Source: Rhina ancylostomus (Eukaryota). From it: a DNA stretch of 62,807 nt. This document shows positions 50,607 through 52,320 of the stretch, piece after piece (the stretch's first letter is position 1; each line of letters opens with the position of its first letter). Position numbers and translations under genes: made by a program. Location of the stretch: assembly GCA_030265395.1 (NCBI GenBank), contig JARFYF010000046.1, positions 23,136,391 to 23,199,197 of the forward strand, given 5' to 3'. The notes beneath the pieces were generated by a model. The model was given only the letters and a program-made list of their open reading frames with translations, made no database searches and was not told the DNA's origin.

Positions 50607-51566
50607 CTATAAACCAGAGGAAAAATATAAGGTTAAAACATCTGTAGTTCACCGTGTCCTTCATGAAAATAAGTACCATCTTCTAGCCATCAAGGATTTT
50701 GTTCAGGCCCTGGTTTATGCTAAAATACATAGCTTCACCACTCCCAGCTAAACAAGGGCATGCATGGCCACTATTCAGCTCATTACATCTACATTAAATC
50801 AAAAAAGAATTCTCCAGTCCAATCCAGGTGTTCATTTCTTGGTCTACAGCCTATATGTTACACCACATCAAGTATTTATCCAATTGCAATTTTAAATGCA
50901 TTAAAGATTTCTAGATCCACTGGTGTTTCTTGCAGCAAGTTACAGATCCCCACCAACCTCTGGGCAGAAAGAAATTCTTGTATCTCCAAATCAGAGTGTA
51001 TTTTCTTAAATCCATGCTGACTGCCCCCAATTAATCAATGTTTCATATTGTTAAGCAGAATCTTTTCCCAATACTTTGCCCACTATTAGCATTTTGCCTG
51101 TAATCATCCAGTAGACCACTTCATCTGTTTTTAAAACAATGAAACCATATTAGCAGTCTTCTAATCTTAAGACATTATATCTATGGATTGGAAAAAGCCA
51201 TGTTAAAATTGTATATTATTTTAAGGCCCCACACTTACATAAACCTATGGGGCTACCGCTTGCTTAAGATGGGATATATCAGCCACCTACAGAATGCTGC
51301 AGATTAAAACTGCAAATGAATATGATCAAAACATTCACTGAAATATTAATAAGTTGTGTAGACATATGGAAGCACAGAATATCAGCACATAGGAGACCAT
51401 TCAGCTCACCCCACTTTCCAGCACTTTTCCCATATCTCAGCAATTTCCCCATTTCCCTTTTAAAAGTTGTTTTGATTCATGCTCATTCATTCTCAAGTTT
51501 AATGTTCCACATTTTTTGTTTGCTTGAGCTCCTCTTTACTTTTAAATAAATTGCAAAAAAAAGTTG

Positions 51567-51646
51567 GCAGTCTCTTCAGTCAACTTCTTAGAGATTTGAA
51601 ATATCATATAATTGTCATCTATGGATGAATCATCATCAGAGACTGC
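51567..51646 (-). ncRNA. SNORD125: Box C/D snoRNA, SNORD125 orthologue
   Basis: Perfect 9-bp terminal stem GCAGTCTCT/AGAGACTGC, C box ATGATGA (51630-51636), D box CTGA (51576-51579), D'/C'-like ATGA/ATGATAT. The guide CTCTAAGAAGTTG is complementary to the conserved 18S rRNA segment CAACTTCTTAGAG. It is intronic and sense to AP1B1, the host gene of human SNORD125. Confidence 0.9.
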
Positions 51647-51984
51647 TGAAAATGCATTCAGGTTTGCAATCAGCCCAAACTAAAACAGAACTTTAAAAAA
51701 AACCTGCAGATGCTGGAAATCTGAAATAAAAACAGCAAGTACTTTTTAAATGCAGGTCAAGCAGCATCTGTGAAAAAGACAAATGGATCTAACATTTCAG
51801 GTTGAAAACCCACTGTCAGAACTGAAGTGTTATCTCCATTTTGCTTTCCACAAACTGAAATTACTCATTGTACCAGCCATTTTAAAATGATGAATAATAT
51901 TATTAAAAGTAACTTAGGGTCAACATTAATCCTTTTATCAGAGTATCATTCTGGAGAATGTGTCTTTTTTTAAAATTTACTTGT

Positions 51985-52320
51985 ATATGGAATGTGGATG
52001 TTCCTGGAAATGCTGACACTTAATTTCCATCCCTAATTGCCCCTGAACTGCATCCAAAGTGATAACCACATTAGTGGGCCTGGGATCACAAAGGCCATAC
52101 TGGATAAGGATGGCAGATTTCCTTCCCTGAAGGACATTGGTGAAGTAGATGAGCTTTTATCACAGTCTGGTGGTTTCATGATTATTATTGCTATGACTAG
52201 ATTTTTTTTTAAATCCCAGGTTTATTTAATTACTTGAACTTAAATTTCCCATCTACCATCATGGGAATCAAACTCATTTCTCTGGATCAGTGACCCAGAA
52301 ATCTGGCTGCTAATGCACCC
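51985..52320 (-). mobile_element. tRNA-head SINE-like repeat
   Basis: ccatccctaattgcccctgaactg...ggcagatttccttccctgaaggacattggtgaa..., homologous to 55495-55830. Confidence 0.65.

Follow-up and report, generated by a model that had tools for sequence, protein, structure and literature searches.

A probable SNORD125 ortholog, predicted to guide 18S rRNA methylation, in an AP1B1 intron of the ray Rhina ancylostomus

The locus and its host gene

The stretch of DNA analysed here, called the window below, spans 62,807 nucleotides of a Rhina ancylostomus contig (GenBank assembly GCA_030265395.1, JARFYF010000046.1, positions 23,136,391 to 23,199,197). It contains the 3′ part of the AP1B1 gene, the 5′ part of which lies beyond the window and, inside one of the AP1B1 introns, a box C/D snoRNA gene (Table 1). 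All 13 coding exons are preceded by AG and each is followed by GT, save the one carrying the stop codon. The snoRNA is encoded on the strand of its host, in a GT-AG intron that interrupts an intact AP1B1 frame; its distance to the donor is 1471 nt and to the acceptor 960 nt. A first-pass annotation of the sequence had located this element without saying on which strand; it is indeed found there, on the minus strand.

Table 1. Coordinates of the AP1B1 and snoRNA features in the window, in the direction of transcription.
Feature	Position	Strand	Basis
AP1B1, 3′ part: 13 coding exons with a frame of 531 residues that stays open up to the stop codon	62084-40846	-	spliced translation
AP1B1 exon upstream of the snoRNA; by count, exon 17 of human (residues 722-769 of the human protein)	53263-53118	-	
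Host intron, GT-AG, 2511 nt, equivalent of human intron 17	53117-50607	-	exon and residue counting
Box C/D snoRNA gene, terminal stem included; probable SNORD125 ortholog	51567-51646	-	motif scan, covariance model
5′ arm of the 9-bp terminal stem, GCAGTCTCT	51646-51638	-	stem pairing, folding
G ahead of the C box	51637	-	reading of sequence
3-nt kink-turn bulge (G51637 and start of C box)	51637-51635	-	motif and stem geometry
C box ATGATGA, perfect consensus	51636-51630	-	motif scan
11-nt segment preceding D′, likely not a guide	51629-51619	-	relatives, 18S complement search
D′-like box ATGA, one mismatch to CTGA	51618-51615	-	aligns with D′ box of Rfam model
C′-like box ATGATAT, two mismatches to RTGATGA	51607-51601	-	aligns with C′ box of model
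T51594, possible extra G-U pair for the guide	51594	-	18S pairing
13-nt antisense guide to helix 39 of 18S rRNA, CTCTAAGAAGTTG	51593-51581	-	human identity, 18S pairing
D+5 position, G51584	51584	-	counted from D box
Single spacer A between guide and D box	51580	-	reading of sequence
D box CTGA	51579-51576	-	motif scan
3′ arm of the terminal stem, AGAGACTGC	51575-51567	-	stem pairing, folding
AP1B1 exon downstream of the snoRNA; by count, exon 18 of human (residues 771-813 of the human protein)	50606-50477	-	

The identity of the host gene, already proposed as AP1B1, is borne out by protein comparisons. The spliced translation shares 523 of its 531 residues (98.5%) with stingray AP1B1, then 498 with the sawshark protein, 491 with a shorter stingray isoform, 463 with either the chimaera or the coelacanth protein and 423 with that of Danio. 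These counts were obtained with the final exon set for 9 of 120 proteins; the ranking of all 120, made with a version in which one small exon was misplaced, has the same top match. When compared with solved structures, the stingray protein scores 1861 bits against AP1B1 versus 1775 bits against AP2B1. Three exons were also scored singly, and two of them favour AP1B1 (169 versus 157 bits and 54.8 versus 48.1 bits). The third, immediately upstream of the snoRNA, has AP2B1 slightly ahead (71.6-74 bits versus 70.1 bits for AP1B1, against solved structures), which may reflect slow evolution together with a faster mammalian AP1B1, or an old gene conversion.

Human SNORD125 resides in intron 17 of 22, the sixth from the 3′ end and 2352 nt long, with 1008 and 1248 nt between the snoRNA and the exons on either side and 1213 nt between it and the branch point (PMC10234308); its host and the exon numbering are also given elsewhere (PMC13400296; PMC4696412). 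The correspondence with the ray intron was established by counting from both sides. On the 5′ side, exon 58567-58308 of the window ends within codon 599, like human exon 13, whose end is at c.1796 (PMC13400296), and the fourth exon after it, which is thereby exon 17, is the one preceding the snoRNA; this count leaves out a 30-nt exon apparently missing from the 949-residue human protein. On the 3′ side, the window has five exons beyond the intron, and 133 residues extend past residue 813. The total is 946 residues versus 949 in human, a difference that could accommodate one 9-nt exon and thus six human exons after the intron. No such 9-nt micro-exon was found in the window, and an amphibian entry has a three-residue insertion at the place where it is supposed. 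The two counts of exons and residues agree, and by them the host intron is the equivalent of human intron 17, the site of human SNORD125, as the first reading of the sequence would have it. A 2009 gene model for chicken, with a numbering of its own, has the homolog in "intron 14" (PMC2653536).

Two further observations concern the gene and its surroundings. In the hinge region, AP1B1 has two small exons, 56711-56691 (21 nt) and 56447-56418 (30 nt), of which one, both or neither occur in other cartilaginous-fish entries, and this variability suggests that they may be alternatively spliced. Downstream of AP1B1, also on the minus strand, lie two exons of a Ras-family gene (22741-22532 and 6907-6635; Pfam Ras, E 1.8e-8 and 2.7e-7). 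This gene resembles RASL10, which presumably adjoins AP1B1 in human and, in the form of a paralog, AP2B1.

Architecture of the snoRNA

The nine pairs of the terminal stem are all Watson-Crick; the stem abuts the D box and closes the 3-nt bulge that precedes the G-A pairs. This layout of stem, bulge and boxes is that of a canonical kink-turn in a canonical box C/D snoRNA; both the perfect stem and the intact C and D boxes read at first sight are therefore real features of the locus. Internally, 7 nt separate the D′-like from the C′-like box and a 7-nt linker leads from the latter to the guide. These two boxes, with one and two mismatches respectively, are aligned with the corresponding boxes of the Rfam model and have no listed change in three relatives (see below).

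When both strands of the window were scanned, a single RTGATGA...CTGA pair flanked by a stem of at least 4 bp was found. In 200 order-3 Markov simulations, such pairs arose at 0.075 per window for stems of at least 4 bp and at zero for stems of at least 6 bp. The snoRNA is present as a single copy within the window. Its folding energy does not separate it from shuffled sequences (z -1.22; 24 of 200 shuffles equally good); a weak thermodynamic folding signal is usual for C/D snoRNAs. The mapped ends of human SNORD125 lie 4 nt ahead of the C box and 2 nt past the D box (PMC4914119), and by transfer of these ends the mature ray RNA is predicted to extend from about 51640 to 51574, that is, over 67 nt.

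Relationship to human and chicken SNORD125

At gathering thresholds, Rfam gave no match in the whole window. A search of 601 nt in E-value mode ranked SNORD125 (RF01200) first of 17 matches, aligned over the full length of the model with 51.6 bits and an E-value of 3.7e-9, about 22 bits above the runner-up (29.8 bits). The score is 4.4 bits short of 56, the curated cut-off that Rfam uses as gathering threshold, and the fit of the ray RNA to the model is poor in the middle. The comparison with this model, which the first-pass annotation had proposed as a check, thus points to SNORD125 while leaving the RNA below the score for formal membership; for this reason, the snoRNA is classed here as an ortholog on the grounds of its position and guide, and not as a formal Rfam member. 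A metagenome locus that has a C box and 17 letters of guide and D box but lacks both a stem and AP1B1 exons scored just 19.1 bits and was set aside as a chance match, so the score of the ray RNA is not due to the guide alone. Five matches to the 18-nt guide and D-box pattern in viral contigs were likewise taken as chance.

Human SNORD125 (RF01200, ENSG00000239127) is the D-box guide for 18S Cm1440 (PMC8210301; PMC4914119; PMC10234308). Compared by eye, 20 consecutive nucleotides of the ray RNA (51593-51574), covering the guide, the spacer, the D box and the first stem bases, are equal to the human sequence, and a fixed 20-mer would be expected 1.7e-7 times in the window. With the lead of SNORD125 over other families and the shared AP1B1 intron, this identity upholds the SNORD125 assignment suggested at the outset. 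The two genes also have in common a remote position with respect to the branch point, a 9-bp stem, the D+5 register and host introns of similar length (2352 nt in human, 2511 nt in the ray). They differ in several respects. The C box is CUGAUGA in human and the perfect ATGATGA in the ray; human D′ and C′ boxes are CUGA and AUGAUGA, whereas those of the ray are degenerate. The 14th guide position is a C in human, forming a G-C pair, and a U in the ray, forming a G-U pair. In the ray, the middle region has diverged and the stem shows two compensatory changes, the third and fifth pairs from the boxes being C-G in human and U-A in the ray (by eye).

The chicken homolog, GGoCD2, resembles the ray RNA in its AP1B1 intron, its boxes, its guide region and its compensated stem, and differs in being listed as an orphan, in having eight of nine stem pairs and in one A-to-G change in the guide (PMC2653536). 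By eye, pair 3 of its stem is U-A, pair 5 C-G and the outermost pair 9 A-U, with one mismatch elsewhere, and the altered guide position would still form a G-U pair with the rRNA (PMC2653536). Such differences between human, chicken and ray, in the stem as in the guide, are in the pattern expected of a structure under selection.

The 18S rRNA target and the predicted methylation

The reverse complement of the guide was found in five 18S-type loci of other organisms, all within prokaryote assemblies of GTDB (L006-L010). The four of these that were scanned with Rfam are eukaryotic SSU rRNA; their occurrence in prokaryote assemblies is contamination. Against the 18S of these other organisms, the 13-nt guide, of a length within the 10-21 nt of antisense elements preceding a D or D′ box, forms 13 Watson-Crick pairs and one G-U pair (about -20 kcal/mol). 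The search pattern demanded the 13-mer, so this result shows only that the 13-mer belongs to 18S at that site, and does so in more than one lineage; the target site is likely to be far older than the snoRNA. The 18S pattern had no match in viral contigs, and no rRNA gene was detected by Rfam within the window.

G51584, five nucleotides ahead of the D box, pairs with the C that follows AA. Both the letters and the register of the D-box guide are those of the human guide, for which position 1440 of 18S rRNA is the reported target, the best in human and the best conserved (PMC4914119). The D+5 position of the ray guide is thus predicted to fall on the C equivalent to human Cm1440, in agreement with the target first proposed. 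The published spacing of Cm1440, Um1442 and Gm1447 fits this cytidine but equally the one three bases on, so the assignment rests on the identity with the human guide. The segment preceding the D′-like box has no exact complement of at least 7 nt in the one 18S tested (L009) and varies among relatives, and on both grounds the ray SNORD125 is likely to be a single-guide RNA. In human, C1440 lies in helix 39 and is assigned to the D-box element of SNORD125, its single guide, in AP1B1 (PMC8210301).

On the evidence of motifs and stem, of the host gene with its intron, and of a guide and D box identical to the human ones, the locus holds a box C/D gene, in the equivalent of AP1B1 intron 17, that is very probably orthologous to human SNORD125, and its RNA is predicted to guide 2′-O-methylation of the 18S cytidine equivalent to C1440. 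The mechanism itself would be an ordinary, textbook one. The RNA would be freed from the spliced intron through exonucleolytic trimming, and the Snu13/15.5K protein would bind the kink-turn, leading to the recruitment of NOP56, NOP58 and fibrillarin. The 13-nt guide, with its additional G-U pair, would then anneal to helix 39 of pre-18S rRNA, and fibrillarin would methylate the C opposite the D+5 position. Distant intronic snoRNAs can undergo a stem-dependent assembly that is independent of splicing. The ray RNA, remote from the branch point and with 960 nt between it and the 3′ splice site, would likely be assembled in this way, as its strong stem would permit, and such an assembly would account for the compensatory upkeep of the stem.

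In human, the modification has been detected by RiboMeth-seq and by mass spectrometry (PMC8210301; PMC9941101; bioRxiv 10.64898/2026.08.19.745671), at widely different levels. It reaches 82% in reactive lymph nodes and is low in lymphoma lines (PMC8210301); scores of 0.41-0.56 in one human cell line run in parallel with the level of SNORD125 (PMC9941101); in another, mass spectrometry gave 11% (bioRxiv 10.64898/2026.08.19.745671). One human data set classes SNORD125 as "not_expressed" at its cut-off (PMC10234308). Neither the guide nor the mark is recorded for mouse, and zebrafish and yeast carry a "-" (PMC8210301). The 34 18S sites given for frog embryos include none two bases before Um1400, the equivalent of Um1442 (PMC8797249).

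One may imagine from these data that the ortholog is expressed and has been selected for pairing with, or chaperoning, helix 39 of pre-18S rRNA or another RNA, methylation of the C1440 equivalent being absent or incidental. A mark that is sub-stoichiometric and variable in human and absent from mouse, zebrafish and frog embryos would be compatible with such a role, as would the degenerate internal boxes and the fact that the guide also covers the neighbouring U1442 and G1447 sites. We nevertheless consider it improbable, given that the distance from guide to D box is the same as in human, where methylation tracks SNORD125 and attains the high level seen in reactive lymph nodes.

Conservation in related organisms

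Six public sequencing runs, none of them recorded as RNA, contain parts of the window, and contigs from four were aligned to it at 80% likeness. Three organisms (X1, X4 and X5) have one contig apiece across the snoRNA and its flanks. Within the 80 nt of the snoRNA, changes occur at 51608, 51609, 51623 and 51627, all in the two spacers, among the 40 of 107 differences listed; the stem, the boxes and the guide have none in that list. The probability that four changes would all miss the 53 motif positions of the 80 is 0.011. The flanks have been far less stable: 16 of the 57 adjoining positions are changed, as are 7 of 14 beyond the opposite end, and large parts of the intron could not be aligned. 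Fisher's test gives p 3e-4 against the 57-nt flank, which was picked after seeing the data, p 0.013-0.03 against the whole aligned flank of that side, and p 0.11 against the whole 5′ flank if two unlisted changes of X5 fell inside the snoRNA. As the three relatives carry the same letters at the listed places, they amount to about one comparison. A further run, X3, has no differences to the window in long contigs, so that it may come from this very source or species, and a gap over most of the snoRNA; it was left out. The X1 contig over the snoRNA (415 nt, depth 3.8), from a run that may be RNA, extends into both flanks and is uninformative on the mature RNA.

The non-independence of these relatives, together with the least favourable p value, leaves some room for another reading, namely a silent SNORD125 relic that looks intact only through the slow evolution of cartilaginous fishes. 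This we hold to be very improbable, since the flanks changed while the stem, boxes and guide have no listed change, and since 20 nucleotides identical to human coexist with compensatory stem changes across the whole jawed-vertebrate span.

The host intron has other features of its own. Fragments of high-copy repeats lie at 51695-51790 and 52050-52310, one of them beginning about 50 nt upstream of the 5′ end of the snoRNA, and their summed depth is up to 84,000 in run X3. A 70-nt block at 50843-50912 can be aligned in the three relatives and is weakly conserved (12 differences in X1); the stretch between it and the acceptor has been replaced.

The miR-3653 annotation

The first-pass annotation had pointed to an 18-mer at 51591-51574, which we take to be the sequence of miR-3653, as a sign that this microRNA is a snoRNA fragment. 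Since guide, D box and two bases of the stem make up the 18-mer, its conservation is explained by snoRNA function. As in human, where it ends at the mapped 3′ end of SNORD125 (PMC4914119), it stops in the ray at the position of the human snoRNA end. Unlike the human annotation, the ray locus has no pre-miRNA hairpin: only 8-9 of the 18 nucleotides are paired in five folds, and the best duplex of the 18-mer with the 150 nt on either side reaches only about -9 kcal/mol. MIR3653 is listed as a gene overlapping SNORD125 (PMC4914119), and miR-3653 has already been named a SNORD125 fragment (PMC7738477). The proposal is thus consistent with the overlap, the shared 3′ end and the lack of a hairpin, and the ray locus adds modest support to a point already in print.

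That the 18-mer is retained as a functional microRNA, beyond its use as a guide, would draw on its identity in human and on the processed-form fraction of 0.27 given for human SNORD125, with its overlapping MIR3653 (PMC4914119). This appears highly improbable, considering that the locus has no such hairpin, that the C box, the D box and the stem are conserved too, and that the chicken A-to-G change, which keeps a G-U pair with rRNA, would alter the 5′ seed region (by eye).

A snoRNA of separate origin with convergence on this target, or else a copy in the AP2B1 paralog, either of which would be silent on the age of SNORD125, is scarcely credible: it could invoke the Rfam score below cut-off, the poorly aligned middle and the upstream exon marginally nearer AP2B1, but gene and intron are as in human, stem sequence outside the guide is shared with human, and the whole protein and two of three single exons favour AP1B1.

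Evolutionary range of SNORD125

SNORD125 has been confirmed by northern blot, with homologs in dog and cow (PMC1636440). It is reported as present in human, platypus, chicken and lizard and absent in mouse, opossum and frog (PMC2653536). A 2016 human atlas labels its conservation "Amniotes", on a scale that also names teleosts, vertebrates and deuterostomes (PMC4914119). For zebrafish, there is one unfiltered SNORD125 row, found by cmsearch only, at chr12:13244433-13244682, in a list called inflated by its authors (PMC11880993); in the supplement with that list, AP1B1 and the guide motifs searched for do not appear. If this row were real, the loss considered below for zebrafish would be weaker. 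No cartilaginous-fish SNORD125 appeared in the titles and opening lines of abstracts among the matches listed for SNORD125, C1440/Cm1440 and cartilaginous-fish snoRNAs, a scope that left subscription papers and automated annotations aside. What is new is thus very probably the range, extending beyond amniotes with the same intron; the family and its mechanism were already known.

It had been proposed that the snoRNA, its target and its host intron have been conserved since the jawed-vertebrate ancestor. For the snoRNA and the intron, the ray ortholog agrees with this proposal. As to the target, the 13-mer also occurs in 18S sequences that do not look vertebrate, and studies of mouse, zebrafish and frog embryos report no methylation at the site, so conservation would be patchy and not continuous. 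A copy in the same intron of a ray, set against the reported absences in mouse, opossum, frog and zebrafish, makes it likely that SNORD125 was present in the jawed-vertebrate ancestor and was later lost, or has escaped detection, in several lineages; the gaps in these four animals become losses or missed detections.

A broader view would make Cm1440 itself an ancient jawed-vertebrate mark, its guide having been kept under selection for more than 400 million years in one intron of a trafficking gene and lost on separate occasions in rodents, opossum, frog and zebrafish; we give this an even chance. Should it be so, cartilaginous fishes would be a natural model for the role of a dispensable, tunable ribosome mark. 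The modification is among the few human rRNA methylations that vary with tissue and growth state, and the mouse cannot serve to model it. The ray gene would also be an instance of a real ortholog that annotation at the Rfam cut-off would overlook.

SNORD125 belongs to the Rfam clan CL00067, which presumably also contains SNORD61, the guide for the nearby U1442; this would hint at a common origin of the two guides with a shift of 2 nt.
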